From positions 2,465,550-2,529,549 of the forward strand of contig CAVWRG010000003.1 in the NCBI GenBank assembly GCA_963757355.1: 64,000 bases of DNA. The letters run 5' to 3'. This document shows positions 7,662 to 55,521 of the stretch, in pieces (within the stretch, counting starts at the first letter, position 1; each line of letters opens with the position of its first letter). A program made the translations under genes and the position numbers. The DNA is from an uncultured Acidobacteriota bacterium. Its GTDB lineage: Bacteria; Acidobacteriota; Vicinamibacteria; Vicinamibacterales; CAVVIG01. The notes under the pieces are model-generated. The model worked only from the letters and a program-made list of their open reading frames with translations, was not told the origin of the DNA and did no database searches.

Positions 7662-7719
7662 ACTAGATTCAACATTTGCGTAGGCGGTGGACCTGTGTGT
7701 CCGCCGGGGCCGACACTAC

Positions 7720-20767: not shown

Positions 20768-20844
20768 GGGATTCGTGATTCGGGCTTCGGGATTCGCGGC
20801 GCCCCGAATCCCGATCGAATCCCCAATCCCGAATCCCGAATCCC
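20768..20844. repeat. Inverted heptamer hairpin, GGGATTC family
   Basis: GGGATTCGTGATTCGGGCTTCGGGATTCGCGG | CCCCGAATCCCGATCGAATCCCCAATCCCGAATCCCGAATCCC. It fills the spacer between the regulator and kinase genes. Confidence 0.85.
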
Positions 20845-20852
20845 TTCTCCAC

Positions 20853-23635: not shown

Positions 23636-23653
23636 GCCCCTCTAGCGATCGGG

Positions 23654-23803
23654 CAATTGGTAAATTGGTGAGTTGATAAATTGCTAAAAGCTAAAAGATG
23701 GGGCGATTTTGCGTCCGTAGCCAAATTGCGATCGAATCAGTTTCGACAGCTCGTCAGCATTCCCGGCATTCACCAACTTACCAACTCACCAACTCACCAA
23801 CTC
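23654..23803. repeat. Inverted octamer arrays, TTGGTGAG family, with ~70-nt central loop
   Basis: Left arm CAATTGGTAAATTGGTGAGTTGATAAATTGCTAAAAGCTAAAAG (23654-23697). Right arm ATTCACCAACTTACCAACTCACCAACTCACCAACTC (23768-23803). Confidence 0.8.
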
Positions 23804-23852
23804 TCTTTGTTTTGCACAGATGTCAACATCTTGCGACTGCCCTAAAAGAAAG

Positions 23853-26950: not shown

Positions 26951-27100
26951 GGAACTCGGGACGGGATTTGGGATTTGGGATTAGGGATTCGATTGGGATT
27001 CGGGGTTCGCGATTCGGCGGAACCCCAAATTCCAAACCCAGATCGCAATTCCCAAATCGCGAATCACAACGCGAGTCCCAAATCCCGAATCCCGAATCCC
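26951..27100. repeat. Large inverted heptamer/octamer hairpin, GGGATTC/GGGATTT family (~150 bp)
   Basis: Left arm GGGATTTGGGATTTGGGATTAGGGATTCGATTGGGATTCGGGGTTCGCGATTCGG. Right arm CCCCAAATTCCAAACCC...GTCCCAAATCCCGAATCCCGAATCCC. It starts 1 nt after the nrdJ stop. Confidence 0.85.
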
Positions 27101-36656: not shown

Positions 36657-37841
36657 ATGAAAGCATTAGTCTGGCACGCGACCAATGACGTGCGCGTGGA
36701 GCGCGTCCCCGATCCGGCCATCCTGAATCCGCGGGACGCGATCGTCAAGATTACGACCACGGCCATCTGCGGATCCGATCTGCATCTGCTCGACGGTTAC
36801 ATTCCCACGATGCAAGCGGGCGACATTCTCGGCCATGAATTCATGGGTGAGGTCGTCGAAGTGGGCAAGGACAACACCAAGCTCTCGGTCGGCGATCGCG
36901 TCGTCGTTCCCTTCACGATCGCGTGCGGCCGGTGTTTCTTTTGCGAGAAGCAGCTCTGGTCGCTTTGCGACAACTCGAATCCGAACGCGTGGATGGCGGA
37001 GCAGCTCTATGGGTACAGCGCCTCGGGATTGTTCGGCTACTCGCACCTGACGGGCGGGTACGCCGGCGGACAAGCTCAGTACGCGCGCGTGCCGTTCGCC
37101 GACGTCGGCCCGTTGAAGATTCCAAACAGTTTGACGGACGAGCAGGTGCTGTTTCTCTCGGACATTTTTCCGACGGGATACATGGCGGCCGAAAACTGCG
37201 ACATCCAGCGCGGCGACACGATCGCGATCTGGGGCTGCGGACCCGTGGGGCAGATGGCGATCCGCAGTGCGTTCCTGCTCGGCGCCGAGCGCGTGATCGC
37301 CATCGACGATGTGCGGGAGCGAATGAAGCTGGCGGAGAGGGGCGGCGCCGAGGTCCTGAGCATGGCCGATGACAATGTGTTCGAGCGGCTGAAGGCGATG
37401 ACCGGCGGCCGCGGCCCCGACGCGTGCATCGACGCGGTCGGCATGGAAGCGCACGGCGCGACCCTCGATGCGTACCTCGACAAGCTGAAGGCCGCGGCGT
37501 TCCTCGCCACCGACCGGCCGAGCGCCCTGCGTCAGGCGATTCAGGCCTGTCGCAAGGGTGGCATCGTGTCGGTTCCCGGTGTGTACGGCGGCTTCCTCGA
37601 CAAGATTCCCTTCGGCGCCGCCTTCCAGAAAGGGCTCACACTCCGGATGGGCCAGACGCACGTGATGAAGTACATGCAGCCGCTGCTCGCGCGGATCGAG
37701 CGCGGCGAGATCGATCCGTCCTTCGTGATCACGCATCGCCTGCGCCTGGAGGATGCACCGAAGGCGTACCAGATGTTTCGCGACAAACAGGACGCGTGCA
37801 TCAAGGTCGTGCTGAAGCCGCACGGGGAGACAATTCATTAA
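36657..37841 (+). CDS. Zinc-dependent alcohol/formaldehyde dehydrogenase family
   Basis: ATG 36657 gives [20 protein letters not shown]...[12 protein letters not shown]...[12 protein letters not shown]...CGRCFFCE...[11 protein letters not shown]. Confidence 0.9.
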
Positions 37842-38008
37842 TTGGGAAGTTGGTGAGTTAGTGAGTTGGTGAGTTGGTGAGTTGGCGAGTTGGTAAGTTG
37901 GTAAGTTGGTAAGTTGCTAAGTTGGTGAGTTGACGGCTTGGCGAGTTGGCGATTTGGTGCATTGAATTCGCCAAATCACCAATTCACCAATTTACCAATT
38001 CACCAACT
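37842..38008. repeat. Largest inverted octamer array, TTGGTGAG family (~15 units forward, ~5 units reverse complement)
   Basis: GGAAGTTGGTGAGTTAGTGAGTTGGTGAGTTGGTGAGTTGGCGAGTTGGTAAGTTGGTAAGTTGGTAAGTTGCTAAGTTGGTGAGTTGACGGCTTGGCGAGTTGGCGATTTGGTG - CATTGAATT - CGCCAAATCACCAATTCACCAATTTACCAATTCACCAACTT. It occupies the entire spacer between convergent stops. Confidence 0.9.
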
Positions 38009-39037
38009 TCAGTATGGCAGCTCGTTATTTTCGGCCGCGGCGCGTTCGGTGCTGCGTGTCAGGCGTGACGGCGCCCAGGCGGAGCCGCTCTGCCAGCCGG
38101 TGCGCGGGCGGTCGCCCGATGCGTCCGTCGCCGACGGCAAGAGGCGGTTGGCCCACTCCATCACCAGCGCGACACCCTCAGGCATGAGGGCATTGGCGAC
38201 GACCGCGAGCTTCGCCGGCCAGCTGATCACGAGCTCGGCATCGCCGTGGCGGCAGGCGTCGACCACCTGCCCAGCCGCACGCGCGGCGTCGATCGAGGCG
38301 ATGGGCATCGAATCGGAAATCGCAAACCAGGTGAACTCGTCGCGATAACGCCCCTTGAACCACGCGTTGAACGGCGAGCCGGTGCGCATCATGCCCGGGC
38401 AGACGGTCGTCACGTGAATGCCGTCCTTTGCGAGCTCGCTGCGGACTGAGTCGGACAATCCGGTGAGCGCAAACTTGCTCGCGCAGTACGGCGTCAGGTG
38501 CGGCACGCCGATTTTGCCTCCGATCGAAGAGATGTTGACGATCCGTCCGCCGCCGCGCCGGCGCATCTCCGGGATCGCCGTCAGCATCGTGTGCAGCGGC
38601 CCCCAGAAGTGCACCGCCATCGCTTCTTCGAAGTCGCCTCGCTGCATGTGATCGAGCGGGCCGACCTTGATCACGCCCGCGTTGTTGATCAGCACGTCGA
38701 TGCGTCCTGTGCGCGCCACGACGCCGCGGACCAGCTGTGTGGCCTCCTCGCGATCGCCGACGTTGCAGACGACGATCGCCGCCTCGATGCCGCGGCCGGC
38801 GAGATCATCGCGCGCCCGTTGCAGCTCGGCTTCATCACGGGCGGCGAGCGTGACGCGCGCCCCTTCGCGGCCGAACTCGCGAGCGAGCAGCAGCCCGAGC
38901 CCGCGCGAGCCGCCGGTGATCACAACTGAGCAGCCGTCGAACGTCATCGATCGCACGGCGCGAATCTGGCGTGCAATCAGCGCCGCGCCGATCGTCGCGA
39001 CGCCAGCTGCCAGCGCCGTTTGCTGTGTCTTGTTCAT
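38009..39037 (-). CDS. SDR family oxidoreductase with N-terminal membrane anchor
   Basis: ATG at 39037 gives MNKTQQTALAAGVATIGAALIA... followed by VVITGGSRGLGLLLA, NNAG and YCASKFAL. The track ORF extends spuriously to 39829. Confidence 0.85.
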   Translation of the reverse strand: MNKTQQTALAAGVATIGAALIARQIRAVRSMTFDGCSVVITGGSRGLGLLLAREFGREGARVTLAARDEAELQRARDDLAGRGIEAAIVVCNVGDREEATQLVRGVVARTGRIDVLINNAGVIKVGPLDHMQRGDFEEAMAVHFWGPLHTMLTAIPEMRRRGGGRIVNISSIGGKIGVPHLTPYCASKFALTGLSDSVRSELAKDGIHVTTVCPGMMRTGSPFNAWFKGRYRDEFTWFAISDSMPIASIDAARAAGQVVDACRHGDAELVISWPAKLAVVANALMPEGVALVMEWANRLLPSATDASGDRPRTGWQSGSAWAPSRLTRSTERAAAENNELPY

Positions 39038-39160: not shown

Positions 39161-41797
39161 ATGCCGGACGCTTCGGCACCCACACTGACTGGTCTGGCAG
39201 CCCGCTCCACGCGCGACGGCGCTCTCGACGCCGCCCTCGAGCGGCTGGCGGGTGATCGGCTGCACAGAGACGGGTCTCCGCCCGACGTTCGGAGACCCGT
39301 CCCCCCGGAGACCCGTTCCTCTCTCGACCGACCCGACACGCCCGACCTGCACGTCACCGCAGTCCGCCGCCTCCCGGCCGTTCCCGCGCAGTTCGCACCG
39401 TTTCCAGAGGCGCTCGATCCGCGGCTGCGGCGTGCGCTCGCATCGCGCGGCATCGCGCAGGCCTACACGCATCAGGCCGAAGCGATCGAGCACGCGCTTG
39501 CCGGCCGCCATACCGTCGTCGTCACGCCGACGGCATCCGGCAAGACGCTCTGCTACAACGCGCCGGTCTTGCACGCGATCCTGCAAGATCCAGCGGCGCG
39601 CGCGCTCTATCTGTTTCCGACGAAAGCGCTCGCGCAGGATCAGCTCGCCGAGCTGCAGGCGATGTGCGAAACGCTGTCGGGGCTGCCGTCGGGGACAGGT
39701 CTCGGCGAGGATGAACGAGACCTGTCCCCGATCAGCGTCTTCACCTACGACGGCGACACGCCGCAGGACGCGCGGCGCACGATTCGGGGACGCGCGCATC
39801 TCGTCCTCAGCAATCCGGACATGGTGCACTCAGGCATCCTGCCGCACCACCCGCGATGGGCAAAGCTCTTCGAGAATCTCCGTTACGTGATCATCGACGA
39901 GCTGCACGCCTACCGAGGCGTCTTCGGCAGTCACCTGTGCAACGTGCTGCGGCGGCTGCGCCGCATCTGCCGGCATTACGGATCGAATCCGGTGTTCCTC
40001 TGTTCGTCGGCGACCATCGCGAACCCGCAGGAGCTGGCGGAACGGCTCACCGAGCAGCCATTCGAGTTGGTCGATCAAAGCGGCGCACCGCGCGGCGAGA
40101 AGTTCTTCGTGTTCGTCAACCCGCCGGTGGTGAATCAGCCGCTGGGCATCCGCCGGTCGTATCTGAGTGAGACGCGCCGCATTGCCGCCGAATTCCTGAA
40201 GCGGAATCTGCAGCTGATCGTCTTCGCGCAGAGCCGTCTCGCCACCGAGATTCTGACGACGTACCTGAAGGACGACTTCGAAGGGATGCCTGGCGCACCC
40301 GAGCGGATCCGTGGGTATCGCGGCGGATATCTGCCGAATCGGCGCCGCGAGATCGAAAAGGGCTTGCGGGAAGGTGCGGTGCGCGCGGTGGTCTCGACCA
40401 ACGCGCTCGAGCTCGGCATCGACATCGGTGCGCTCGACGTCAGCGTCATGGCCGGCTACCCGGGGACGATCGCGGGGACGTGGCAGCGCGCCGGGCGCGC
40501 CGGACGCCGCGCCAGCCGATCGGCGGCAGTGATGGTCGCCAGCAGCGCACCGCTCGATCAGTTCGTCGTCCGCAACCCGTCGTACTTCTTCGACGCGTCG
40601 CCCGAGCGCGCGCTGATCGATCCTGACAACCTCCATATCCTGGTCGATCACATCAAGTGCGCCGCCTTCGAGCTGCCGTTCACGACGAGCGAGGCGTTCG
40701 GCCGGCACGACCTCCAGGAGATTCTGTCGCTGCTGGCGGAGCAGGGGCTGGTGCATCGCGCCGGCGGCAGCGCCGACCTCGACGCGCCGGAGGTCGAAAC
40801 GCAGTGGACGTGGACGAACGAATCGTACCCGGCCGACGCGGTCAGCCTGCGGTCGGTGTCCTCAGACAATTTCGTGATTGTCGATACGACAGAGGAGACG
40901 TGCGTCATCGGAGAGACCGATTTCACGAGCGGCCCCGCCACGCTCCATCCCAAAGCGATCTACATCGTCGAAGGGAAGCTGTATCAGGTGGAGAGGCTCG
41001 ATTTCGAAGGACGCAAGGCGTTCGTGCGCGCGATCGAGTGTGACTACTACACGACCGCGATCACGTACACGCGGGTGACGATCCTCGATACGTTTGCGCA
41101 AGGCGCGGAGGAACAGGGGTACGGCCCCTTTTCGGGTGAGTCCGGCGACGAAAAGGGGCCGTACCCCTTTTCCTCGCACGGCGAGGTCCACGTCGTGTCG
41201 CGCGTCGTCGGGTTCAAGAAGATCAAGTTCTATACGAACGAAAATGTCGGATCCGGCGAGCTCGACCTGCCCGAGCAGCAGATGCACACGACCGCGTACT
41301 GGCTGACCATTCCAGCGTCGGTGATGAGGCTGCTGCCGTGCGCCTCGGACGATCGGCGCGACGGCGTCGTTGGCTTGGCGTTCGCGATGCGCCAGGTCGC
41401 GCAGCTGCTGTTGATGTGCGATGGGCACGACATCGGCATCTCAATTTCCGGATTCGGGATTGGGGATGCGGGATTGGGGCCGAAAGCGGGCCAGTCGAAT
41501 CCCGCATCCCCAATCCCCAATCCCGACGGCGTTCAGATCTTTGTGTACGACAATTACCCGGGTGGGATTGGTTTCAGCGAGCCGTTGTTCCGGATGCACG
41601 ATGAGTTGCTCGCCGCGACGCGCCGTCTCATCGCCGAGTGCGAGTGCGAGAGCGGTTGCCCGGGATGCGTCGGCCCCGTCGGCAATACCGGACCGCTCGC
41701 GAAAGTGGTGGCGCTGCGGATTCTCGATCTGTTGACGGGCGCGACGGCGCTCTCCACGCCGGCGCACACGGTCGATCCAGAGGTTCAACCTTTTTGA
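39161..41797 (+). CDS. DEAD/DEAH-box helicase with C-terminal DUF1998 zinc domain (MrfA/YprA-like)
   Basis: Motif I VVVTPTASGKTLCY, motif II IIDELHAY, SAT-like SSATIAN, and QRAGRAGRR. The C-terminus carries CECESGCPGCV. Two repeat insertions lie in frame. Confidence 0.9.
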   Translation: MPDASAPTLTGLAARSTRDGALDAALERLAGDRLHRDGSPPDVRRPVPPETRSSLDRPDTPDLHVTAVRRLPAVPAQFAPFPEALDPRLRRALASRGIAQAYTHQAEAIEHALAGRHTVVVTPTASGKTLCYNAPVLHAILQDPAARALYLFPTKALAQDQLAELQAMCETLSGLPSGTGLGEDERDLSPISVFTYDGDTPQDARRTIRGRAHLVLSNPDMVHSGILPHHPRWAKLFENLRYVIIDELHAYRGVFGSHLCNVLRRLRRICRHYGSNPVFLCSSATIANPQELAERLTEQPFELVDQSGAPRGEKFFVFVNPPVVNQPLGIRRSYLSETRRIAAEFLKRNLQLIVFAQSRLATEILTTYLKDDFEGMPGAPERIRGYRGGYLPNRRREIEKGLREGAVRAVVSTNALELGIDIGALDVSVMAGYPGTIAGTWQRAGRAGRRASRSAAVMVASSAPLDQFVVRNPSYFFDASPERALIDPDNLHILVDHIKCAAFELPFTTSEAFGRHDLQEILSLLAEQGLVHRAGGSADLDAPEVETQWTWTNESYPADAVSLRSVSSDNFVIVDTTEETCVIGETDFTSGPATLHPKAIYIVEGKLYQVERLDFEGRKAFVRAIECDYYTTAITYTRVTILDTFAQGAEEQGYGPFSGESGDEKGPYPFSSHGEVHVVSRVVGFKKIKFYTNENVGSGELDLPEQQMHTTAYWLTIPASVMRLLPCASDDRRDGVVGLAFAMRQVAQLLLMCDGHDIGISISGFGIGDAGLGPKAGQSNPASPIPNPDGVQIFVYDNYPGGIGFSEPLFRMHDELLAATRRLIAECECESGCPGCVGPVGNTGPLAKVVALRILDLLTGATALSTPAHTVDPEVQPF
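41111..41173. repeat. Paired palindromic mini-element inside the helicase CDS (arms GGGGTACGGCCCC then GGGGCCGTACCCC)
   Basis: GAACAGGGGTACGGCCCCTTTTC - 16 nt - GAAAAGGGGCCGTACCCCTTTTCC, 63 nt in all. It is translated as EQGYGPFSGESGDEKGPYPFS. Confidence 0.85.
41448..41525. repeat. Inverted heptamer hairpin (GGGATTS family) inside the helicase CDS
   Basis: A perfect 20-bp inverted repeat, GGGATTGGGGATGCGGGATT (41456-41475) and AATCCCGCATCCCCAATCCC (41498-41517). The 78-nt block stays in frame. Confidence 0.9.
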
Positions 41798-43083
41798 GCG
41801 CGCTCTCCGACCGCCTGCGTGGCATCATCGGCGCGCCGCCGCCTGGCGCCGCGGGGACCGGATCCCAAGTCCCGTGGAGCGGATCCCAAATCCCGGCCGA
41901 ATCCCAAATCCCGATCGAATCCCGAATCCCAAATCCCGAATCCCGAGATCTCTCCTGCCTGGCCGGCGAATGGCGCGGTGGCTGTTTCGTCGTGGAGCGG
42001 CGATACGACCGTGGCGTCTGCTATGGCCACGAGCCCGTCGGGGCGCTCTGGAGCCGCCTGGCAGCAGCCGCAGACGAGGCGCCGCTTGTCGCCGGCGGTG
42101 CGCCGGCGCGGCTGCCGTTCGTGTTCTTCGATTTGGAAACCACCGGTCTGAGCGGCGGCGCCGGCACTCACGCGTTTCTGGTGGGCTGCGCCTCGTTCGA
42201 CGAAGAAGGCGCGTTCGTCACGCGGCAATTCCTGCTCACGCGCTTCACCGACGAGAAGCCGCTGCTCGCCGCGGTGGCCGCCGAGCTCGCCCGGGCGGGC
42301 GCGTTGGTCAGCTTCAACGGCAAGTCGTTCGACGCGCCGGTGCTGGAGACGCGCTACTTGTATCACCGGCTGCCATGGGCCGCAGGGCAGCTGCCGCACA
42401 TGGACGTTCTGCACCCGGCACGGCGCTTCTGGCGCGACGAGCAGGAGATGGCGAGCTGTTCGCTGGTGTCGCTCGAGCGTCAGATCCTCGGGGCGCGCCG
42501 CATCGGCGACGTCCCGGGATTCGAGATTCCTGCGCGTTACTTTCAGTTCATTCGGAGTGGCGAGGCGCGCCCGCTGGCGGCCGTGCTCGAGCACAACCGG
42601 CTCGATTTGTTGTCGCTCGCCGGGCTGACCGCGCGCCTGCTGCATCTCATCCGCCGGGGTCCTGGCGCCGCGAAGGACGCGCGCGAGGCGTTGGCGCTCG
42701 GACGGGTGTACCTGCGTGCCGGGCTCGAGGTGCGCGCGTGCGACGCGTTCCAACAGGCGGCCGACCGATCGAGCGCGCACAGCGCGGTCAGAATCGAGTC
42801 GCTGCGCGCGCTGGCGCTGGCCTGGCGCCGCGCGCGGCAGCACGACCGCGCGGCAGCCTGCTGGAGCGCGCTGCTCGACGCGCCCGCGTGTCCGCGCCAC
42901 GTCGCACGTGAGGCGACCGACGCGCTCGCGATTCATCACGAGCATCGCGTCCGCGATCTCGCCGCGGCGAAAGGCTTTGCATTACGAAGTCTGGAATCCG
43001 GCGTGCATCCCGCCAGTCACGCGGCGGTGAGGCATCGTCTGGCACGGATCGAGCGGAAGATGAGCTCGCGTTTGCTGCTGTAG
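41794..43083 (+). CDS. DEDDh-type 3'-5' exonuclease with TPR-like C-terminus (MrfB/YprB-like)
   Basis: The TTG start overlaps the helicase stop (TTGA) and gives (M)SALSDRLRGII. Exo motifs are FFDLETTGL, FNGKSFDAPVLETRY and LEHNRLDLLSLAGL, with a helical repeat tail. The start is uncertain. Confidence 0.75.
   Translation: MSALSDRLRGIIGAPPPGAAGTGSQVPWSGSQIPAESQIPIESRIPNPESRDLSCLAGEWRGGCFVVERRYDRGVCYGHEPVGALWSRLAAAADEAPLVAGGAPARLPFVFFDLETTGLSGGAGTHAFLVGCASFDEEGAFVTRQFLLTRFTDEKPLLAAVAAELARAGALVSFNGKSFDAPVLETRYLYHRLPWAAGQLPHMDVLHPARRFWRDEQEMASCSLVSLERQILGARRIGDVPGFEIPARYFQFIRSGEARPLAAVLEHNRLDLLSLAGLTARLLHLIRRGPGAAKDAREALALGRVYLRAGLEVRACDAFQQAADRSSAHSAVRIESLRALALAWRRARQHDRAAACWSALLDAPACPRHVAREATDALAIHHEHRVRDLAAAKGFALRSLESGVHPASHAAVRHRLARIERKMSSRLLL
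41860..41946. repeat. One-armed heptamer array (GAATCCC/AAATCCC units) inside the exonuclease CDS
   Basis: GGATCCCAAGTCCC...GGATCCCAAATCCCGGCCGAATCCCAAATCCCGATCGAATCCCGAATCCCAAATCCCGAATCCCGAG, translated as GSQVPWSGSQIPAESQIPIESRIPNPESR. Confidence 0.85.
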
Positions 43084-43198
43084 CCGGGTCCAGAAGGACC
43101 CGGCCTACAATCGGAGGCCGTAGTCGCGTCCAAAGGACCCGCCCTGCAATCGGAGGCCGTAGCCGGATCCCACAGGACCCGGTTTTCAACCGGGCGGC
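43080..43198. repeat. Three tandem ~40-bp REP-like units (GTAG-hairpin-CCTAC)
   Basis: GTAGCCGGGTCCAGAAGGACCCGGCCTACAATCGGAGGCC / GTAGTCGCGTCCAAAGGACCCGCCCTGCAATCGGAGGCC / GTAGCCGGATCCCACAGGACCCGGTTTTCAACCGGGCGGC. The first GTAG contains the exonuclease TAG stop. Confidence 0.85.
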
Positions 43199-43204
43199 TT
43201 GGAT

Positions 43205-43471
43205 CTATCGCGCGGCGGCCGGCTCTTTCTTGACCTTGGTCGCGGCGGCAGCTTTTTTTCGGCTCTCCGACGTCTGCGCGCCGTACTTCTTCGTGAAGCG
43301 CTCGACGCGCCCCTCGGTGTCGAGCAGCTTCTGCTTGCCCGTGAAGAACGGGTGGCAGCTCGAGCAGATTTCGAGGTGAAGCTCCGGCTTCGTCGAGTGG
43401 GTCTTCCACGTGGCGCCGCACGCGCAGCGCGCTTCGACCTCGTGGTATTTCGGGTGGATGCCTTCCTTCAC
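43205..43471 (-). CDS. rpmE: 50S ribosomal protein L31
   Basis: [59 protein letters not shown] is the canonical zinc-binding type, with a Lys/Ala-rich tail. Confidence 0.95.
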
Positions 43472-43519
43472 GGCGTACTCCTTGGGCGTTACGAGAATCC
43501 TCGATTATACCATGGTGGT

Positions 43520-43554
43520 GTAGGAGCCGGCCTATGTGCCGGCCCGTACTCTAC
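43520..43554. repeat. REP-like hairpin (GTAGGAGCCGGCC-TATGT-GCCGGCCCGTACTCTAC)
   Basis: GTAG...CTAC termini with a GCCGGC stem. The terminal CTAC supplies the TAG stop of the minus-strand aldo/keto reductase gene. Confidence 0.6.
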
Positions 43555-44555
43555 GGCGTCGCGTTCGGCGCGCGGTCCCACCGATGGCTCCGCAGCGCTT
43601 CCTTCAACCGGGGTGGGAGAGGCGCCGCATCGCTGACGGCCATGTTGCGTTCGACGTGCCCGGTCCGGCGCATACCGGGAATCGTGGTGCTGACGGCCGG
43701 GTTCGCCAGGATGAATCGCAGCGCGATCTCGGCCAGATTCATCCCCTCCGGCACGAGCGGCTCGAGCCGCTCGACACGCGCGAGCGTGGCCGCCAGGTGG
43801 CCGGGGTTGAAATAGACGTTGCGCCAATCGCCTTCCGGCCAGCGTGATTCCGCGGTCAACGTGCCTGTGAGGCTGCCTTCATCGAAGGGCACCCGCGCGA
43901 TGACGGCGATGCCGTGCTGCTGACAATAGGGGAGCAGCGTATCCTCCGCCGACTGATCGAAGATGTTGTAGACCACCTGCACGCTGTCGATCAGGCCGGT
44001 GTCGAGCGCCCGCAGGACGTTTTCCGGCTCCCACCGGTTGACGCTGATCCCGAAACCGCGGATCAGCTTTTCGCGTTTCAGTGTCTCGACCGCCCGCTGC
44101 CAGCCGCGATCCGCGGCCCAGGCGTCGCTCCAGACGTGAAACTGTTGCAGGTCGATCGCCTCCACGCCGAGGTTCGCGAGGCTCTTCTCCGTGTACTCGC
44201 GGATGTGATCGGCGGGATAGGTGTCGCGGACGTCGTATTCCGCCCGCCCCGGCCATTTCATGTTCTTCGGCGGGATCTTGGTGGCGACGACAACGGGCCG
44301 TATCCCTTTTTCGCCGGCATCGCTCGGAAAAGGGGTACGGCCCCTTTTTCGGAGCGCCTGCCCGAGCAGCGTCTCGCTCTTGCCTGCGCCGTAGGCCCAC
44401 GCCGTGTCGAAGAAGGTGCAGCCGAGGGTCAGCGCGCGATCCAGCGCCTGCAGCGACTCCTCATCGTTGGAGCCGGTCCAGCCGCCCATGCCCCACAGGC
44501 CATAGCCGACTTCAGAAACCTGCCAGCCCGCTCGGCCGAATGTCCGGTAGCGCAT
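43551..44555 (-). CDS. Aldo/keto reductase
   Basis: MRYRTFGRAGWQVSEVGYGLWGMGGW...FFDTAWAYGAGKSE...VVATKIPP...IGISV...AIARVPFDEGSLTG. It contains an in-frame repeat insertion. Confidence 0.9.
   Translation of the reverse strand: MRYRTFGRAGWQVSEVGYGLWGMGGWTGSNDEESLQALDRALTLGCTFFDTAWAYGAGKSETLLGQALRKRGRTPFPSDAGEKGIRPVVVATKIPPKNMKWPGRAEYDVRDTYPADHIREYTEKSLANLGVEAIDLQQFHVWSDAWAADRGWQRAVETLKREKLIRGFGISVNRWEPENVLRALDTGLIDSVQVVYNIFDQSAEDTLLPYCQQHGIAVIARVPFDEGSLTGTLTAESRWPEGDWRNVYFNPGHLAATLARVERLEPLVPEGMNLAEIALRFILANPAVSTTIPGMRRTGHVERNMAVSDAAPLPPRLKEALRSHRWDRAPNATP
44291..44350. repeat. Paired palindromic mini-element inside the aldo/keto reductase CDS (one arm degenerate)
   Basis: CAACGGGCCGTATCCCTTTTTC - 14 nt - GAAAAGGGGTACGGCCCCTTTTTC, 60 nt in all. 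It reads on the minus strand as RKRGRTPFPSDAGEKGIRPV. Confidence 0.85.
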
Positions 44556-44561
44556 AGGACT

Positions 44562-44655
44562 CGAGGCTCAACTCGCACGCTGGCGATCAGCGTCGGTCGA
44601 GTGCGTCGCTTCGTTGAGCGTTATTTCGTTGAGCGTTGAGAGTTGCTTGTTGGAA
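44562..44655. repeat. Short heptamer array (CGTTGAG units) with weak inverted partner (CTCAAC)
   Basis: ...TTCGTTGAGCGTTATTTCGTTGAGCGTTGAGAGTTGCTTGTTGG with upstream GGCTCAACTCGC, in the spacer between the rho stop and the reductase start. Confidence 0.45.
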
Positions 44656-44659
44656 AGTG

Positions 44660-46009
<1,350 letters not shown>

Positions 46010-46554
46010 AGTTCGTCCAGTCCTTCGCCCGTGGCGGCCGAGACCGGCACCACGGAAGTCTCAAATACGGATTCGAGTTGCCTCATCGCGCGGATCCGTT
46101 CGCCGCGCGCGAGCTTGTCGATCTTGGTGGCCACCAGCGTGCAGTGATCGACGGTCTGCTGCAGCCAGCGCCAGGCGTCGAGGTCGCTCGGCAGGCCTGG
46201 GTGTCTCGCGTCCACGAGCAGCAGGGCGGCGATCTGCCGGGGCCGCCCAAAGTACGCCCGCGTCAGCTCGTCGAACGCACCTGCTGATTCGGTGCCGCCC
46301 CGCGCGTAGCCGTATCCCGGCAGATCCACGAGGTGGAACGGCCGCGCTGCGCCGCGCTGCACCCGAAAGACGTTGGCCAGCCGCGTCTTGCCCGGCGCCG
46401 CGCTCGTGCGTGCGAGACGCTGGCGAACGAGCGCATTGATCAGGCTCGACTTGCCGACATTCGAGCGGCCGACGAAGGCGATCTCCGGGACGTCGCCGTG
46501 CGGCAGTCCGGGCGCGCCCGCGGCGCTGGTGACGAACGTGGCGTCAATTCTCAC

Positions 46555-46641
46555 GGGATTTGTGATTCGTGATTGGGATTCGGCGGGATTCGTCTCGAAT
46601 CCGACCGGCTGCGAATCCCAAATCCCGAATCCCGAATCCCC
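46555..46641. repeat. Inverted heptamer hairpin, GGGATTC family
   Basis: GGGATTTGTGATTCGTGATTGGGATTCGGCGGGATTCGT | CGAATCCGACCGGCTGCGAATCCCAAATCCCGAATCCCGAATCCC. It fills the spacer between the engB start and the lon stop. Confidence 0.85.
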
Positions 46642-46647
46642 CGAACG

Positions 46648-49047
<2,400 letters not shown>

Positions 49048-49121
49048 ATTTGGTGAGTTGGCAATTTGGTAAATGGGTAAATTGAACTTACCAATTTACC
49101 AACTTATCCATTTACCAATTT
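49048..49121. repeat. Inverted octamer hairpin, TTGGTGAG/TTGGTAAA family
   Basis: ATTTGGTGAGTTGGCAATTTGGTAAATGGGTAAATTG | ACTTACCAATTTACCAACTTATCCATTTACCAATTTC. It spans the whole lon-clpX spacer. Confidence 0.85.
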
Positions 49122-49123
49122 CT

Positions 49124-50371
<1,248 letters not shown>

Positions 50372-50383
50372 GCTGTCTCTCTT

Positions 50384-50429
50384 GTAGCGCGGGACCTGCG
50401 GTCCCGCCCGGCCTAAAGACCTGCGCTAC
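50384..50429. repeat. REP-like hairpin (GTAGCGC-GGGACC-TGC-GGTCCC-...-GCGCTAC)
   Basis: GTAG/CTAC termini enclose a GGGACC/GGTCCC stem, in the clpX-clpP spacer. Confidence 0.6.
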
Positions 50430-50439
50430 AACTGGTTAC

Positions 50440-51051
50440 CTACGCCCTTTTGCGGATGACATCGTCAATAATACCGTATTCCTTGCCCTGATCCGCCGAC
50501 ATGATGTAGTCGCGCTCGGTGTCGTCCTGGATGCGCTTGACCGGTTGTCCGGTGTGATGGACCAGGATCTCGTTGAGCCGCTCCCGCATGCGGAGAATCT
50601 CGCGCGCCGCAATATCAATATCGGTCGCTTGGCCGCCTAAACCAGACATCAACGGCTGATGAATGACAATCCGTGAATTCGGCAGCGAAAATCGCTTTCC
50701 CTTCGCACCAGCCGAGAGCAACACGGCGGCCATCGACGCCGCCTGCCCGATGCAATAGGTCTGCACATCGGGCTTGATGAACTGCATGGTGTCGTAAATG
50801 GCCATCCCGGCGGTAATCGAGCCGCCCGGGCTGTTGATGTAGAGCAGGATGTCCTTGTCGGGGTCTTCCGCCTCCAGGAACAGCATCTGGGCGATGACCA
50901 GGTTGGCAATTCCGTCATCAATCGGCGTGCCGATGAAGATGATGCTGTCCTTCAGCAGACGCGAAAAAATATCGTAGGCCCGTTCACCACGGTTGGTCTG
51001 TTCAACCACCATGGGCACCAGTTGATTCCGGGCGTCAGGCGGATAGTGCAT
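50440..51051 (-). CDS. clpP: ATP-dependent Clp protease proteolytic subunit ClpP
   Basis: ...[27 protein letters not shown]..., catalytic [11 protein letters not shown], and IHQP. ATG 51051 is preferred because GAGGA lies 9 nt upstream. The track start at 51093 is possible. Confidence 0.9.
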
Positions 51052-51321
51052 AGACGATTGTCCTCGGGGCGCCGGCTCGGATGCGGGCCGCACGTCAGAT
51101 CAGTTAGGCCGTCGCGCGAGCGTCCGGCATGTCACACGATGTTGGCTAGGATGGATTTGCCCCGGCAGGGCGAGCACTGCCAGCTATTGTAACACGTGAA
51201 ACGCGCGGAACGCCTCTGGTGCAGATCCGAGCACTTTTACCGGGGACATTCCGCCCGATGATCACGTATCCGTCGGCCTCCGACAAATTTTGTCCGGTGT
51301 CGTCCAGCTGAACCGGATGCC

Positions 51322-51345
51322 GAAAAGGGGCCGTACCCCTTTTCC
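51322..51345. terminator. Single arm of the palindromic mini-element (GAAAAGGGGCCGTACCCCTTTTCC) downstream of tig
   Basis: A4G4-CCGTA-C4T4 hairpin 27 nt after the tig stop on the minus strand. It has a U-run on either strand, giving a bidirectional intrinsic-terminator shape. Confidence 0.45.
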
Positions 51346-51371
51346 CTCCACGCCGCGACCGTCCGCCGCGC

Positions 51372-52673
51372 TCAATCGGTGAAGGTGGCCTTGCTCATTA
51401 CGAAGTCGACCGCTTTTTCGCGGCGCAAGCCCGATCGCACCCGGGACAGCCCGCCCTCTTTCTCGAGCCCGGCGCGCACGGCCGCCGGCGCCCGGCCCGT
51501 CCGTGCGGCGAAGCGCTCGATCTCCTGCTCGACCTCTTCGTCAGTGGCGTCGAGGTGCTCGTGCCGCGAGAGCTCGTCGAGCACCAGCGCACTCGCGACC
51601 GCTTCGCGCGCGACCTCGCGCTGGCTCTCCCGGAACGCGTTCCAGTCGATGCCGGCCTGCCGCGGATCGATGTTCTGATCGATCAGGCGCCGCGCAAAAT
51701 CCTCGATCCGCCGATCGATCTCGCGTTCGATGAGCGACGCAGGCACCTCGAAGGGCACGCGGGTCGCCAGCTGCTTCATCAGCTCCGCGCGGACGTCGCG
51801 CTCGGCCGCATGCCGCGCTTCGTGCTCGAGATCCTCACGCACCCGCGCGCGCAGGGCCTCGAGTGTTTCGAACTCGCCGAGATCTTTGGCGAGCTCATCG
51901 TCGAGCGCCGGCAGCACGCGACGCTTCAGGCTCTTGACGTGGACCGTGTACGTCACGTCCGTGCCGGCCAGCTCGGTGATCGTGTAGTCGGAGGGATAGT
52001 GCAGCGTGAACGTCTTGGTGGCATCCGGCTCCAGGCCGAGCAGCTGCTCGTCGAATCCGGGCGGATTCGCTTTCGCGCCCAGCTCCACCGACACGTCGGC
52101 GTGTGTGTCGGCGCCTGCGTCCTCGGCTGCCGTGCCGTCGGGCGGCGGTGTCGCGGCGTGGCGCTCCAGGTCGAGCACGACGGTGTCGCCGTGATCGACG
52201 CCGCGTCCCTCGACAGGCTCGAAGCGGGCCGCGCGCTCGCGCAGCCGCTCCATCGCGAGATCGACCGCCTCGTCGTCCACGCGCGTCGATGCGCGCTTCA
52301 ACGACACCGTCGCGTAATCGCCCGGTTCGAACGGCGGCAGGGTGTCGAATGTCGCGGTGAAGGTGAGCGGCTGACCTTCCTCGACGTTTACGTCCCGAAT
52401 ATCCGGCGTGTCGACCGGTTCGACGCCGCGCTCCCGCAGCGCATCGTCCATCGCGCGCGGAATCAGGTCGTGGACGACGTCGTGCAGGATCTGGTCCTTG
52501 AAGCGCTGCTTGATCACGCGCGCGGGCGCTTTCCCCGGGCGAAATCCCGGCACGCGCGCCTTGCGCGAATAGTCGCGGGCGATGCGGTCGATCTCGGCGC
52601 TGACCACATCTGTGGGAATTTCGACGCGCACGTTCTTGCGCGTCTCGTTGACGTCGACGAACTCGGTTTTCAT
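51372..52673 (-). CDS. tig: Trigger factor
   Basis: 433 aa. N-terminal ...RKARVPGFRPGKAPARVIKQRF is the ribosome-binding GFRPGK signature, in tig-clpP-clpX-lon synteny. Confidence 0.95.
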   Translation of the reverse strand: MKTEFVDVNETRKNVRVEIPTDVVSAEIDRIARDYSRKARVPGFRPGKAPARVIKQRFKDQILHDVVHDLIPRAMDDALRERGVEPVDTPDIRDVNVEEGQPLTFTATFDTLPPFEPGDYATVSLKRASTRVDDEAVDLAMERLRERAARFEPVEGRGVDHGDTVVLDLERHAATPPPDGTAAEDAGADTHADVSVELGAKANPPGFDEQLLGLEPDATKTFTLHYPSDYTITELAGTDVTYTVHVKSLKRRVLPALDDELAKDLGEFETLEALRARVREDLEHEARHAAERDVRAELMKQLATRVPFEVPASLIEREIDRRIEDFARRLIDQNIDPRQAGIDWNAFRESQREVAREAVASALVLDELSRHEHLDATDEEVEQEIERFAARTGRAPAAVRAGLEKEGGLSRVRSGLRREKAVDFVMSKATFTD

Positions 52674-52698
52674 GCGATTTTCATGGAGTGAAAACGAG

Positions 52699-52816
52699 AT
52701 TTGGTGATCTGGTGATTTGGTGACTTGGCGATTGATGACCTGGCGAATGGGATGTCAGTGCAGTCACTAACACCCTCAATTCACCAACTCTCCAACTCAC
52801 CAACTCGCCAATTTTA
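52699..52816. repeat. Inverted octamer hairpin, TTGGTGAY family
   Basis: ATTTGGTGATCTGGTGATTTGGTGACTTGGCGATTGATGACCTGGCGAATGG - 25-nt loop - TCAATTCACCAACTCTCCAACTCACCAACTCGCCAATTTT. It lies between tRNA-Leu and the tig start. Confidence 0.85.
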
Positions 52817-52871
52817 CCGATCTGATGCTTGGGCTCCGAAGCTCACGCGCGATGGCGCGTGAGCGAAGGAG

Positions 52872-52954
52872 TGCGAAAGGCGGGAGTCGAACCCGCATGG
52901 CTGTTAACCACCGGATCCTAAGTCCGGCGCGTCTGCCAGTTCCGCCACTTTCGC
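52872..52954 (-). tRNA. tRNA-Leu (anticodon UAG)
   Basis: The minus strand reads GCGAAAG-TG-GCGGAACTGGCAGACGCG-CCGGA-CTTAGGA-TCCGG-TGGTTAACAGCCAT-GCGGG-TTCGACT-CCCGC-CTTTCGC-A. All four stems pair and the long variable arm marks class II. CCA is not encoded. Confidence 0.9.
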
Positions 52955-53114
52955 CCGCGGAGACGATGGTGCCGGCTCCAGCCGGAAGCTCCAGAGTAAC
53001 ACTGTGCTACCATCCCGCGCGAGTATGAGCCCTGACCCCTATCATGGACTATTTCACTGGCACGCAGGCCAGAACGGCCAGCCAAGCGTGTCTCGCGCCA
53101 AGGCGGCCCCTGCG

Positions 53115-53297
53115 ATGATTCCGTGCCCGACGACCGGACGGCCGCTGCGCGTCGCCACGATCGAAGCGGAGGCTGCGGCCATCTGCCCCTCGTGTGTCAG
53201 CCGGGCGCGCGGCGGGTTCGTCTCCTTCGACGGAGACTTGCGCATGGCGTATGCCTGCCCGCACTGTCGTCAGCTGGTCTGGCTGGCGGGAGTATAG
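53115..53297 (+). CDS. Possible small zinc-ribbon protein (60 aa; longer forms from 53004/53025 possible)
   Basis: MIPCPTTGRPLRVATIEAEAAAICPSCVSRARGGFVSFDGDLRMAYACPHCRQLVWLAGV. It has CP..., CPSC and CPHC motifs and GC3-rich codons. Weakly similar in layout to the small ORF at 27118. Confidence 0.35.
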   Translation: MIPCPTTGRPLRVATIEAEAAAICPSCVSRARGGFVSFDGDLRMAYACPHCRQLVWLAGV

Positions 53298-53357
53298 AAA
53301 AGGGGCCGTACCCCTTTTTCAGGTGCGCCCAAGAAAAAGGGGTACAGCCCCTTTTAC
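53296..53357. repeat. Paired palindromic mini-element between convergent genes
   Basis: AGAAAAGGGGCCGTACCCCTTTTTC - 12 nt - GAAAAAGGGGTACAGCCCCTTTTAC. It overlaps the stop codons of the small ORF (+) and the methylase (-). Confidence 0.85.
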
Positions 53358-54337
53358 GAGCTCAGCGTTCTCGGCGTCAGATTCGAGATCAGGAATTCGT
53401 CGACCGGGCCGCGGCCGGCCGCGTCGCTGTTCATCGCGCGACGCGCGGGGACGCGCACCGCGCGAAGACCGGCGGCGCGCGCGTCGACGCTCGTGTCGTA
53501 GAGCGCCGCGATTTCGCGCGCGGTGGAATTGCTGACCAGCACGTAGCATCCGCGCCCCGCCAACTCGATCACCATCCGCTGCACGCGCGTCTGATCCTCG
53601 AGCGTGAAGCGCGGCGCCGTGTACGACGTGAAGTTCGCCGTCGCGCTCAGCGGTGCGTACGGTGGATCGACGTACAGAAAATCGCCCGCCTCCGCGATGC
53701 CGAGCGCCGCCTCGAACGATCCGCAGATCAATTGCACCCGCGCGCTCGCCAGCGCCGCCGCGACGCGAAACAATTTCGCGCGATCGCAGATCGATGGCCG
53801 CGCATAGCGTCCGGCCGGCACGTTGTACGCGCCGCTCGCATTGACCCGAAAGAGCCCGTTGAACCCGGTGCGATTGAGATAGATGAGCATCGCGGCGAGC
53901 TGCGGGGTGTACGCAATGCGGCCGTCCGCGCGCCGGCGCTGCTCGCGCTGCGGGTTGAATTGCGCATCCCGCACGGCGTAGTAGTGCGCGGAGCCGTCCG
54001 CGGCATGCGCCGCTGCGAGCTCGCCCAGCGCCCGCGACACTTGCTCCGGCTGGTCGCGCACGGTCTCGTAGCAGCCGATCAGATCCGGATTCGAGTCGAT
54101 GAGAATCGCGTCGTGATCCCGCAGCCGGCCCGCGCCCCACAAGTCGAAGAACACGGCGCCGCTGCCGAAGAACGGCTCGACGTACCGGCCGAACGCCTCG
54201 GGATAGAAGCGGCGCAGCTGCGGCAGGAGCTGTCGCTTGCCGCCCGCCCACTTGAGCAACGGACCTGCTTGATTGCCGGGCGACGATTGGTGACTTGGTG
54301 CCCCGGTGACTTGGCGAATGACGCCGCTCTTCATCAT
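53354..54337 (-). CDS. dam: DNA adenine methyltransferase (Dam-like, D12 class N6-MTase)
   Basis: LLKWAGGKRQLLPQL...EPFFGSGAVFF (FxGxG SAM motif)...FLYVDPPY (DPPY catalytic motif). The ~25-aa N-terminal extension is encoded by repeat units, so the start is uncertain. Confidence 0.9.
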   Translation of the reverse strand: MMKSGVIRQVTGAPSHQSSPGNQAGPLLKWAGGKRQLLPQLRRFYPEAFGRYVEPFFGSGAVFFDLWGAGRLRDHDAILIDSNPDLIGCYETVRDQPEQVSRALGELAAAHAADGSAHYYAVRDAQFNPQREQRRRADGRIAYTPQLAAMLIYLNRTGFNGLFRVNASGAYNVPAGRYARPSICDRAKLFRVAAALASARVQLICGSFEAALGIAEAGDFLYVDPPYAPLSATANFTSYTAPRFTLEDQTRVQRMVIELAGRGCYVLVSNSTAREIAALYDTSVDARAAGLRAVRVPARRAMNSDAAGRGPVDEFLISNLTPRTLSS

Positions 54338-54382
54338 GTCGTCGAATTTACCAACTCACCAACTCACCAACTCACCAATTTC
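54284..54382. repeat. Inverted octamer hairpin, TTGGTGAC/TTGGTGAG family, straddling the methylase start codon
   Basis: Left arm CGATTGGTGACTTGGTGCCCCGGTGACTTGGCGAATG (in the CDS). The loop carries the CATCAT start codons (54332-54337). Right arm GAATTTACCAACTCACCAACTCACCAACTCACCAATTTC. Confidence 0.85.
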
Positions 54383-54861
54383 TACAGTGTCGCATCCCGC
54401 TCCGCCCACCACCAGACCCCCAGCGCGCTGGCGAGCAGCGCCAGGGCCCCTGCGTACAACGGGAGCGACGGCGCCGCGCGCCGGGCGAGCGCAACAACCT
54501 CGCTCGTGAACAGATCCACGGCGTCGTTGCTCACCGACGTCAGGCCGCTGCGGTGCATCAGCATCCAGACGCCCGCCACGATCGCCGCGACGACGAGGCC
54601 GATCGCCAGATTGAAGCCGACGTCGAGGAACTGCTCGCTGCGCCAGCGCGCGCGGCGGATCCGCGCCATCGTGCGGGACGTGAACTGCGGCGGCGTGCGC
54701 GGCGTCGGGCGCGCCTGCAGCATCCGCTCGAGCGCGCGTGCATCTTCGAGCGCCGCCGCGCAGTTCGGGCAGGACGTCAGATGCCCGGCGACGCGGCCGT
54801 CCGGCCTCAACTCGCCAGCGGCGATCGCCTCGATGGCATCGAGCGCTTCGTCACAGAACAT
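54382..54861 (-). CDS. Anti-sigma factor (zf-HC2 type, membrane-anchored)
   Basis: MFCDEALDAIEAIAAGEL...HLTSCPNCAAALEDA carries the C-H-C-C zinc motif. TM segments follow (IGLVVAAIVAGVWMLM, LYAGALALLASALGVWWW). Confidence 0.8.
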   Translation of the reverse strand: MFCDEALDAIEAIAAGELRPDGRVAGHLTSCPNCAAALEDARALERMLQARPTPRTPPQFTSRTMARIRRARWRSEQFLDVGFNLAIGLVVAAIVAGVWMLMHRSGLTSVSNDAVDLFTSEVVALARRAAPSLPLYAGALALLASALGVWWWAERDATL

Positions 54862-54864
54862 AAG

Positions 54865-54959
54865 CTCGCCAATTGGCGAGTTGGCGAGTTGGAGAGTTGG
54901 CGAGTTGGCGAGTTGAAATCACCAATTCACCAATTCACCAATTCACCAATTCACCGAAT
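54865..54959. repeat. Inverted octamer hairpin, TTGGCGAG / CACCAATT family
   Basis: GCTCGCCAATTGGCGAGTTGGCGAGTTGGAGAGTTGGCGAGTTGGCGAGTTG | AAATCACCAATTCACCAATTCACCAATTCACCAATTCACCGAAT. It includes the perfect 16-bp palindrome CTCGCCAATTGGCGAG. Confidence 0.9.
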
Positions 54960-54966
54960 ACCGATC

Positions 54967-55521
54967 TCATCGCAGCTCCGTCTCCAAGAGCCGCCGCAGC
55001 TGCTGCTTCGCGCGGAACAGATGCGTCTTCACCGTGCCGAGCGGAAGCTGGAGCGCCTCGGCCAGATCTTCATACCGCACGCCCTGGAGATAATGAGCCG
55101 CGACCAGCAGACGCTGGTGCGCCGGCAGACGCGCAATCGCCTTCTCCAGTCGATCGTGCAGCTCCAGATCGCCGAACCGGCGGTCCGTCGCCGACGCTGT
55201 GACGCGCCCCCGGCCCGCCTCGTCGTCGAGCGACACGGTGTCGCGCCCGCTCCTCGGACGCGCCTGCTCCTGCAGACACGCGTTCGCGACGATGCGGTAG
55301 ATCCAGGTGGAGAGGCGCGCCTCTCCGCGGAAATACGGCAGCCCGCGGTGGACGCGAAGGAACACGTCCTGCGCGAGATCCTCCGCACGCGATCGATCCT
55401 GCACCGTGCGCGCAATCAACGCGAACACCAGGTCCTTGTACCGATCGACGAGCTCTTGAAACGCTCCCTCATCGCCGCGACGGCATCGCTCGACGAGCTC
55501 GCGCTCGTTCACGGGCTCCAT
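54967..55521 (-). CDS. ECF-type RNA polymerase sigma factor (sigma-70 family, regions 2 and 4)
   Basis: ERELVERCRRGDEGAFQELVDRYKDLVFALIARTV...AEDLAQDVFLRVHRGL... and the region 4 sequence YEDLAEALQLPLGTVKTHLFRAKQQL. Confidence 0.9.
   Translation of the reverse strand: MEPVNERELVERCRRGDEGAFQELVDRYKDLVFALIARTVQDRSRAEDLAQDVFLRVHRGLPYFRGEARLSTWIYRIVANACLQEQARPRSGRDTVSLDDEAGRGRVTASATDRRFGDLELHDRLEKAIARLPAHQRLLVAAHYLQGVRYEDLAEALQLPLGTVKTHLFRAKQQLRRLLETELR

Follow-up and report, generated by a model that had tools for sequence, protein, structure and literature searches.

An in-frame copy of a Vicinamibacteria palindromic repeat family in a loop of an aldo/keto reductase, probably an old and tolerated insertion

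We analysed a stretch of 64,000 nucleotides (hereafter the window) from an uncultured Acidobacteriota bacterium (GCA_963757355.1, contig CAVWRG010000003.1, positions 2,465,550 to 2,529,549), in which an original prediction, made from the letters alone, had placed a mini-element in frame in a gene for an aldo/keto reductase (AKR), and had regarded it as the same element as one found in a helicase gene of the window. The segment in the AKR gene belongs to a family of palindromic repeats of Vicinamibacteria (Acidobacteriota subdivision 6), is read in the frame of its host and lies in a loop of the encoded protein. We give a probability of roughly 0.8 to the reading that it is one copy of this family that was inserted in frame long ago and has been tolerated since.

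The host gene (43551-44555, minus strand) encodes 334 amino acids, of which residues 15-315 match Pfam PF00248 (Aldo_ket_red, E=1.1e-50), and the minus-strand translation runs in frame through the element, as had been predicted. The protein reads ...GQALR KRGRTPFPSDAGEKGIRPV VVATK..., with the insert between GQALR and VVATK. The insert peptide, RKRGRTPFPSDAGEKGIRPV, occupies 20 codons (44292-44351, minus strand; DNA CGAAAAAGGGGCCGTACCCCTTTTCCGAGCGATGCCGGCGAAAAAGGGATACGGCCCGTTGTC). The original prediction was right about the number of codons, but its coordinates, 44291-44350, are one base off and read EKGAVPLFRAMPAKKGYGPL. In terms of the repeat, the segment is a doublet (44289-44350, minus strand) that consists of arm A, a 14-nt spacer and arm B. 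Arm A (GAAAAAGGGGCCGTACCCCTTTTC, 44327-44350) is intact, with no mismatches and 24 of 24 nucleotides shared with intergenic units, and is read as (R)KRGRTPF. The spacer (CGAGCGATGCCGGC, 44313-44326), read as PSDAG, has homologous counterparts in AKR orthologues, from which it has diverged. Arm B (GAAAAAGGGATACGGCCCGTTGTC, 44289-44312), read as EKGIRPV, is the one that was predicted to be decayed, and it does differ from the consensus GAAAAAGGGGTACGGCCCCTTTTC by three changes (GGGATACGGCCCG), or by 2-3 mismatches depending on the search pattern; AKR orthologues keep this arm as EKGVRPL with consensus DNA. The insert includes codons that end in A or T (GAA AAA GGG GTA CTT TTT), while the G+C content at third codon positions (GC3) of the gene is about 85%. 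We rejected an assembly artefact as the source of the segment, given that the element is present in at least nine independent assemblies.

The repeat element of the family to which the AKR and helicase palindromes belong is a 23-nt hairpin unit, GAAAAGGGGCCGTACCCCTTTTC. A position matrix built from 92 arms gives the consensus G-AAAA-GGGG-CCGTA-CCCC-TTTT-C, a 9-bp stem with a 5-nt loop and sharp edges, with no conserved bases in the flanks beyond G-AAAA...TTTT-C. The asymmetric loop CCGTA is invariant across about 90 arms from several species represented by metagenome-assembled genomes (MAGs). Each 17-nt arm pattern has nine matches in the window, against 0.06-0.08 expected, and none of 100 shuffles reaches nine. 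Both the AKR copy and the helicase copy match these patterns; the claim that they are the same element holds, and they indeed use different frames of the unit: the helicase copy encodes EEQGYGPFS...EKGPYPFS, the AKR copy KRGRTPF.

About half of the elements (26 of 56) are doublets. The pairs are inverted in 34 of 38 cases, and the four pairs in the same orientation trace to loose matches with three mismatches. Spacers measure 12-22 nt across the family and are mutually unrelated in sequence. An inverted doublet, its two units typically separated by 12-19 nt, can fold into a single hairpin whose stem measures about 24 bp, which resembles the structure of a REP doublet forming hairpin (REPIN; REP, repetitive extragenic palindrome). 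Predicted RNA folding energies are -13.6 kcal/mol for a single unit and -39 to -58 kcal/mol for intact doublets, with z-scores of -5 to -7 for doublets; the AKR copy forms one long imperfect hairpin at -34.4 kcal/mol.

When each species was represented by a single genome, a scan for exact 19-mers found at least 49 loci, nearly all in MAGs assigned to Acidobacteriota gp6, Vicinamibacteria or Vicinamibacterales. These matches include MFD05513.bin.2.57 (contigs CAWBJQ01), which is 93-97% identical to window positions 471-8598 and so assigns the window to this group. The same scan of 2.9 million viral contigs gave no matches, and we therefore rejected a phage-borne repeat. At the gathering threshold, no Rfam family matches the repeat, and the only Rfam hit in the whole window is one tRNA. 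In the literature on palindromic repeats, REPINs and REP-associated tyrosine transposases (RAYTs) of Acidobacteria or Vicinamibacter, we found no description of this family. Exact unit matches also occur in two MAGs that carry no Acidobacteriota label. One of these (L004, an Actinomycetota MAG, CAWATS010000027.1) has one unit only, which could be a chance match; the other (L013, a Burkholderiales MAG) has a full doublet on a 2991-nt contig that may be mis-binned.

The copies are concentrated behind genes. According to a crude gene caller based on GC3, 21 intergenic copies lie between tandem genes, eight between convergent genes and one between divergent genes, and most copies are 0-30 nt from the 3′ end of a gene, just past the stop codon. 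Each of the six frames of the unit is open, with no stop codon, and encodes a K/R-G-x-x-P-F/L peptide: EKGPYPF, KRGRTPF and KGAVPLF on one strand, and EKGYGPF, KRGTAPF and KGVRPLF on the other. That a frame stays open through an element is thus no evidence, and a screen of coding copies by longest open frame was uninformative. We replaced it with a test for coding-type GC3 on both flanks, by which 9 of 56 elements (about 16%) are in frame and about 84% are intergenic. This stricter count is used here because the crude gene caller, which gave 18, over-calls intragenic copies at 5′ ends. The Pfam-confirmed hosts of in-frame copies are housekeeping genes: methylmalonyl-CoA mutase, ThiS-ThiF-rhodanese, PurL, an AcrB-type transporter, SelA, Dxr and UvrA, and the helicase and AKR of the window complete the list. 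In the host genes, Pfam domain matches flank the insert on both sides.

The position of the AKR insert was examined by alignment and by structure prediction, both of which the original prediction had proposed as checks. In alignment with the nearest solved structures, all of AKR11 (1PYF, AKR11A/IolS; 1PZ1, AKR11B; and 3N2T), these characterised enzymes have 5-6 residues where the window AKR has 20, in agreement with the expectation that only a few residues are normal at this site. Among orthologues the length of the loop ranges from 5 to 24 residues. Anchoring was possible for 57 orthologue loci, and in 35 of them the loop has 8 residues and is of the AHRGAPAY type. Because distant orthologues (60-70% identity) also have the 8-residue loop, it is the ancestral state. 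The 20 predicted codons are present; however, since they replaced part of this ancestral loop, the net gain is 12 residues and not 20.

An AlphaFold model of the AKR has a mean predicted local distance difference test score (pLDDT) of 83.9 and a predicted template modelling score (pTM) of 0.87. Its best matches in the PDB, as found by Foldseek, are AKR11A/B with TM-scores of 0.75-0.80, and its fold is an (alpha/beta)8 barrel. The insert fills the loop that leads from helix alpha2 (residues 59-70) to strand beta3 (residues 89-94), and is modelled as a low-confidence coil (residues 71-88, with pLDDT below 50 at residues 77-84). Residues D50, Y55, K93 and H140 do not vary among 49 orthologues; from the IolS/AKR11 alignment and general knowledge of the family, we take them to be the catalytic Asp-Tyr-Lys-His tetrad. 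A loop that leads from a helix into a strand is located, in an (alpha/beta)8 barrel, where the strands have their N-terminal ends, and this side is opposite the catalytic face. As the loop is disordered in the model and the catalytic residues are invariant, the insert is most likely tolerated, with an enzyme that would still work with an 18-residue floppy loop.

Comparison of orthologues, a further check that had been proposed, uncovered full, half, decayed and absent states of the element at the AKR site. The gene neighbourhood (rho - AKR - rpmE - RNase_H_2-like - helicase) is conserved, and in syntenic orthologues that are 75-88% identical the element occupies the same site and is read in the same frame. 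The full element, KRGRTPF-5 aa-EKGVRPL, is present in P0002, P0006, P0012, P0041, P0044, P0093, P0102 and L059 (our handles for orthologues and loci), and with a one-residue spacer in P0010 and P0014, the latter having lost most of its spacer. Both arms are still perfect in several of the orthologues. Arm B occurs by itself in P0001, P0004, P0005, P0020, P0025, P0027, P0034, P0052 and P0106, among which P0001 is 96% identical outside the loop and has kept arm B alone. The element is decayed in P0003/L050 (both arms) and in P0008. In the DNA, all copies agree in the 3′ junction and in the frame, whereas the 5′ junction varies, and follows LR, LRAEL/LRADV, AHRGA or ARRG.

The spacers are informative about the origin of these copies. 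In eight of the nine full-element copies that we compared the spacer is 15 nt long, and in the ninth it is 3 nt. The eight AKR spacers have a mutual identity of 53%, compared with 32% for spacers of unrelated copies, a value that none of 5000 resamples reaches. The full elements therefore descend from one old insertion. The AKR insertion is thus old and shared by ancestry, with a patchy distribution, and the age that had been suggested from the decayed arm now also follows from the diverged but homologous spacers of the orthologues.

These observations are best explained by the following course of events. A doublet would have entered an ancestral AKR gene in the alpha2-beta3 loop, and replaced about six codons of the 8-residue loop. 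It would have been kept there because three circumstances coincided: the length of the doublet preserves the reading frame of the AKR gene; none of the six frames of the unit contains a stop, each giving a Lys/Arg-Gly...Pro-Phe/Leu peptide of the coil type; and the loop is expected to lie on that side of the barrel which faces away from the active site. The copy would then have been inherited and probably also swapped between related lineages by homologous recombination, with later decay or partial deletion in several lineages; in the window, arm B has begun to decay. As the putative mechanism by which the family as a whole spreads, we favour either a single-strand process like that of REPs and RAYTs or short-patch gene conversion.

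Several findings weigh against this account of an old, inherited and tolerated copy. With regard to the family, both ends of the unit lack the GTAG/CGTC tag of classical REPs in the 92-arm matrix; direct repeats flanking the elements, which could be target-site duplications, are no more common than at random positions; and we identified no enzyme, transposase or other, that would mobilise the repeat family. A search for RAYTs with the motifs WQxRFWDH and YxxxNPV, a weak test that covered 140 loci and the window in six-frame translation (0.77 Mb in all), found none. With regard to the AKR copy, the insertion is not a clean addition, given the net change of +12 residues, and in the half-element forms P0106 and P0020 arm B is joined to an otherwise ancestral loop. 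In a neighbour-joining tree, the element-bearing AKRs are spread over five clades or more, and some of their nearest neighbours are free of the element and have loops of the ancestral type (P0003 versus P0018, 93% identical; P0010 versus P0046, 94%). This patchy distribution means that simple vertical inheritance with loss is insufficient. Finally, in orthologues with a recognisable element the arms are conserved far above the level of synonymous sites elsewhere in the gene, which would not be expected of a purely neutral passenger.

Could the 20 residues simply be an ordinary loop of an AKR subfamily, selected as protein, that resembles the repeat by chance? The wide range of loop lengths among orthologues would allow this. 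However, arm A is identical to intergenic units over its full length and arm B has just three differences, the modal loop is the 8-residue form held by all distant orthologues, the codons follow the repeat and not the GC-rich third positions of the gene, and the segment is unstructured in the model. We consider a chance resemblance extremely unlikely. In particular, a native family-wide loop, which the original prediction had named as the finding that would speak against it, is refuted by the arm matches, the modal loop and the repeat-like codons: the family as a whole does not have this loop, the DNA of which is a genome-wide repeat.

The patchy distribution, the element-free nearest neighbours and the variable 5′ junction could instead reflect several independent insertions into a hot-spot loop. 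The same AKR loop of another genome (P0042 in locus L140, 6211-6256; GCA_020073005.1, JAIQFX010000002.1) holds a different palindrome, AAGGGGACGGGTCTCGG-12 nt-CCGAGACCCGTCCCC (-41 kcal/mol), whose motif recurs elsewhere in the L140 locus, so independent colonisation of loops does occur; likewise, a loop of the helicase hosts at least four unrelated repeat types across lineages. Nevertheless, the 15-nt spacers in eight of the nine full copies are significantly related (0.53 versus 0.32), while those of unrelated copies are 12-22 nt long and have no sequence relation, and the 3′ junction and frame are uniform. The full elements are better explained by a single origin, with recombination and deletion afterwards, than by independent insertions, which we consider rather improbable. 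The best fit is one origin combined with exchange by homologous recombination among lineages and with partial deletions that occurred repeatedly. The half-element forms are ambiguous, and single units may have been gained independently in P0106 and P0020.

The most interesting point is the conservation of the arms within a reading frame. In pairwise comparison of the nine full-element copies, whose proteins are 75-88% identical, DNA identity is 95.8% in the arms, 54% in the 15-nt spacer and 78% in the rest of the gene, and third positions of identical codons agree in 93% of cases in the arms but in 67% elsewhere. This contrast could indicate that the AKR copy is no passive passenger, and that the arms function as a nucleic-acid signal which selection or a sequence-specific drive preserves, even inside coding DNA, an explanation that we consider possible but doubtful. 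Candidate signals, named with equal reserve, are a site bound by a dedicated protein (a domesticated RAYT-like enzyme or a nucleoid protein) and a hairpin in the mRNA with an influence on stability, on cleavage by RNase III or on translation. The retention of A/T-ending codons in a gene with about 85% GC3, the invariant CCGTA loop and the strong folding of doublets (-40 to -58 kcal/mol) would agree with such a signal. So would the AKR loop of P0014 (locus L138), where matching changes in the two arms, GGGGTCGTAC and GTACGACCCC (GGTCGT / ACGACC), preserve complementarity around the 3-nt spacer; this is a single case, and possibly one of arm-to-arm correction. On the other hand, the orthologues in this comparison were picked by recognisable loop peptides, which favours intact arms and accounts for part of the contrast with synonymous sites. 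Moreover, there are decayed arms at the AKR site (arm B of the window, L050 and P0008), and the helicase copy, nearly perfect in the window, is decayed or replaced in L050, L059 and L133. The arms are thus maintained in many lineages, but not in all. In addition, many orthologues do well without the element, the repeat has no Rfam match, and its hairpins are not called by a simple terminator scan.

The maintenance that does exist could be caused by selection on the hairpin, by a dedicated enzyme or by biased gene conversion, with other copies as donors. We put forward tentatively the broader idea that a sequence-specific system common to the lineage actively maintains the 23-nt arms as DNA or as RNA, even inside reading frames. 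The systems that might do this are a domesticated RAYT-like enzyme, another hairpin-binding protein, or a drive through uptake or gene conversion, and we hold this list to be no firmer than the idea itself. If it were true, genes of Vicinamibacteria such as the AKR gene would bear a second, non-protein code in a surface loop, and permissive loops of the helicase, UvrA, PurL, SelA, Dxr and AcrB would have been colonised repeatedly by several palindrome families.

A more specific form of drive would be that the units act as DNA-uptake signals comparable to the DNA uptake sequences (DUS) of Neisseria or the uptake signal sequences (USS) of Pasteurellaceae, and spread by biased uptake and recombination. 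Like these, the unit is a short motif that is invariant across species, it forms inverted pairs just behind genes, its intragenic copies use all frames, its alleles are distributed off the tree in a manner that suggests recombinational spread between lineages, and it lacks target-site duplications. DUS and USS occur roughly once per kb, however, while the window has about one arm per 7 kb; only about 16% of copies are intragenic, a strong intergenic enrichment; and each unit is itself a palindrome that forms a hairpin, which to our knowledge is not a feature of DUS or USS. The combination of conserved arms with a diverged spacer also means that transfer of whole alleles was not recent. We know of no report of natural competence or of a cognate receptor in this acidobacterial group, and we regard an uptake signal as very unlikely.

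Among known repeats, the closest parallel for an in-frame palindrome in a protein-coding gene is found in the Rickettsia palindromic elements (RPEs), reportedly described from R. conorii by Ogata et al. in 2000. RPEs are A+T-rich, about 100-150 bp long, encode 30-50 residues and occur in the reduced genomes of obligate intracellular alphaproteobacteria, where they form surface-loop peptides through insertions common to orthologues. Like RPEs, the present family is palindromic and has in-frame copies in genes that still encode functional-looking proteins, and the AKR copy adds an extra peptide in a surface loop through an insertion common to related orthologues. Unlike RPEs, its unit is 23 nt long (about 60 nt for a doublet), the genome is G+C-rich, the phylum is soil-dwelling and about 84% of the copies are intergenic. 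The two are not known to have any sequence similarity, and length, composition and host set the unit apart from RPEs. The acidobacterial unit is an RPE analogue and not an RPE, and the AKR copy is a good new example of the in-frame palindromic repeats already known from Rickettsia (RPEs are summarised in PMC3733652) and other bacteria.

The family also resembles REP sequences in several respects. As described by Bertels & Rainey (PMC3116915) and Di Nocera et al. (PMC3733652), REPs and their composites, bacterial interspersed mosaic elements (BIMEs) and REPINs, consist of hairpin units of 20-40 nt with a high copy number, often in inverted pairs, and favour sites downstream of open reading frames (ORFs), between unidirectional or convergent genes, sometimes over the stop codon. 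A minority are intragenic, notably in uvrA and helicase genes (PMC3733652). The acidobacterial family shares the unit size, the inverted doublets, the location behind genes and the intragenic minority that includes uvrA and a helicase gene. It differs in that its unit has no GTAG/CGTC tag and has a stem clamped by runs of A4 and T4. According to the REPIN model, a REPIN is copied in one piece, whereas the spacers of different doublets are unrelated in the acidobacterial family. The lack of target duplications would be compatible with REPs and REPINs, and overall the family agrees with these classes in part. PMC3733652 also mentions intragenic REPs in other phyla, as well as tyrosine transposases flanked by terminal inverted repeats in Acidobacteria of the class Terriglobia; their GGGGWSAS repeat motif does not, by our comparison, fit the unit.

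Two further classes were considered and rejected. Like MITEs (miniature transposable elements with inverted repeats; Correia/NEMIS, ERIC, RUP and Nezha), the copies are small, non-coding, gene-adjacent repeats that have inverted ends and form hairpins. Target-site duplication is typical of MITEs. Bacterial MITEs are 70-300 bp long with terminal inverted repeats of 15-30 bp (PMC3733652). Our elements measure 23-62 nt and have no duplication beyond chance, so we rejected this class. The unit also resembles a bidirectional intrinsic terminator, having an A-tract, a G/C stem-loop and a T-tract, on both strands and 0-30 nt past stop codons. Ordinary terminators do not have one invariant sequence and loop throughout a genome. 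Unlike them, the unit has four G-C pairs only, and its T-run of 4-5 nt is paired with the A-run. A consensus terminator scan of 40000-55000 called none of the four copies there, and the canonical intrinsic terminator was rejected as an identity for the unit on this basis.

These results add the Vicinamibacteria, a soil lineage that is abundant but has been studied little, to the bacteria with a phenomenon for which Rickettsia and some proteobacteria are the best-known examples, and illustrate how selfish or structural palindromic repeats can become parts of proteins. For annotation, K[KR]G..P[FL] peptides in Acidobacteriota proteins are repeat-derived and not features of a domain, and in protein engineering the copies flag loops that tolerate insertions. 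The AKR locus, with its conserved arms, its drifting spacer and its full, half, decayed and absent states, may serve as a natural experiment that sets selection, gene conversion and a dedicated enzyme against each other.

The remaining copies of the family in the window are the following. An intergenic doublet at 1522-1585 (plus strand) starts 8 nt past the stop codon of the ORF at 141-1514 and folds at -50.7 kcal/mol. A relative that is 93-97% identical (L025) has the orthologous doublet with an indel polymorphism at the element (window 1547-1652 versus L025 6858-6897). We compared the two to catch an insertion event, and saw only a 39-nt deletion in L025, which cuts short the second arm. The helicase copy is a doublet at 41111-41172 (plus strand) in which arm B precedes arm A, the opposite of the AKR order; it lies within the DEAD/MZB helicase ORF at 39161-41797 and is read as EEQGYGPFSGESGDEKGPYPFS. 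A single 23-nt unit at 51322-51344 (plus strand) lies 27 nt downstream of the stop codon of the ORF at 51372-52673 (minus strand), and the end of an intergenic doublet at 53297-53356 (plus strand) overlaps the stop codon of the ORF at 53354-54337 (minus strand).

The helicase gene also contains other repeats. A second palindrome family, GGGGAC[A/G]GGTCTCGG...CCGAGACC[T/C]GTCCCC, occurs in frame at 39690-39730 and 39267-39319 (peptide SGTGLGEDERDLSP), and all five window matches to its motif are within the helicase ORF (5 versus 1.2 expected), which thus has at least three in-frame palindromes from two families. The helicase gene of L140 (8531-11173) has five in-frame copies of this second family, with peptides such as GTGLG...RDPSP, and the palindrome in the alpha2-beta3 loop of its AKR orthologue P0042 is one copy of it. 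The helicase loop that follows YTRVTxLDTF (equivalent to 41090-41180 of the window) has a baseline of seven residues, as in L083, and holds lineage-specific repeats: a third long hairpin, GAAAAGGGGTCGGGAGTCGTTTCC..., in L133, an arm of which is also present in L008, L020, L037, L049 and L059; arrays of the heptamers AGCTSCC and CCCGAxx in L086, L087 and L092; and tandem octamers in inverted arrays in L095 and L107.

Outside these families, the window has a separate and abundant palindromic class of inverted 8-nt tandem arrays, (TTGGTGAG)n followed by (CTCACCAA)n, at about 6000-6096, 23640-23811, 37811-38017, 49034-49132, 52684-52822, 54278-54391 and 54850-54971. Arrays of the 7-nt repeat GGGATTY / RAATCCC are found on both strands, at 20802-20847, 26960-27100, 41483-41524, 41885-41945 and 46599-46640. 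Some of these lie inside long ORFs, for example the array at 41885-41945 in the ORF at 41638-43083.

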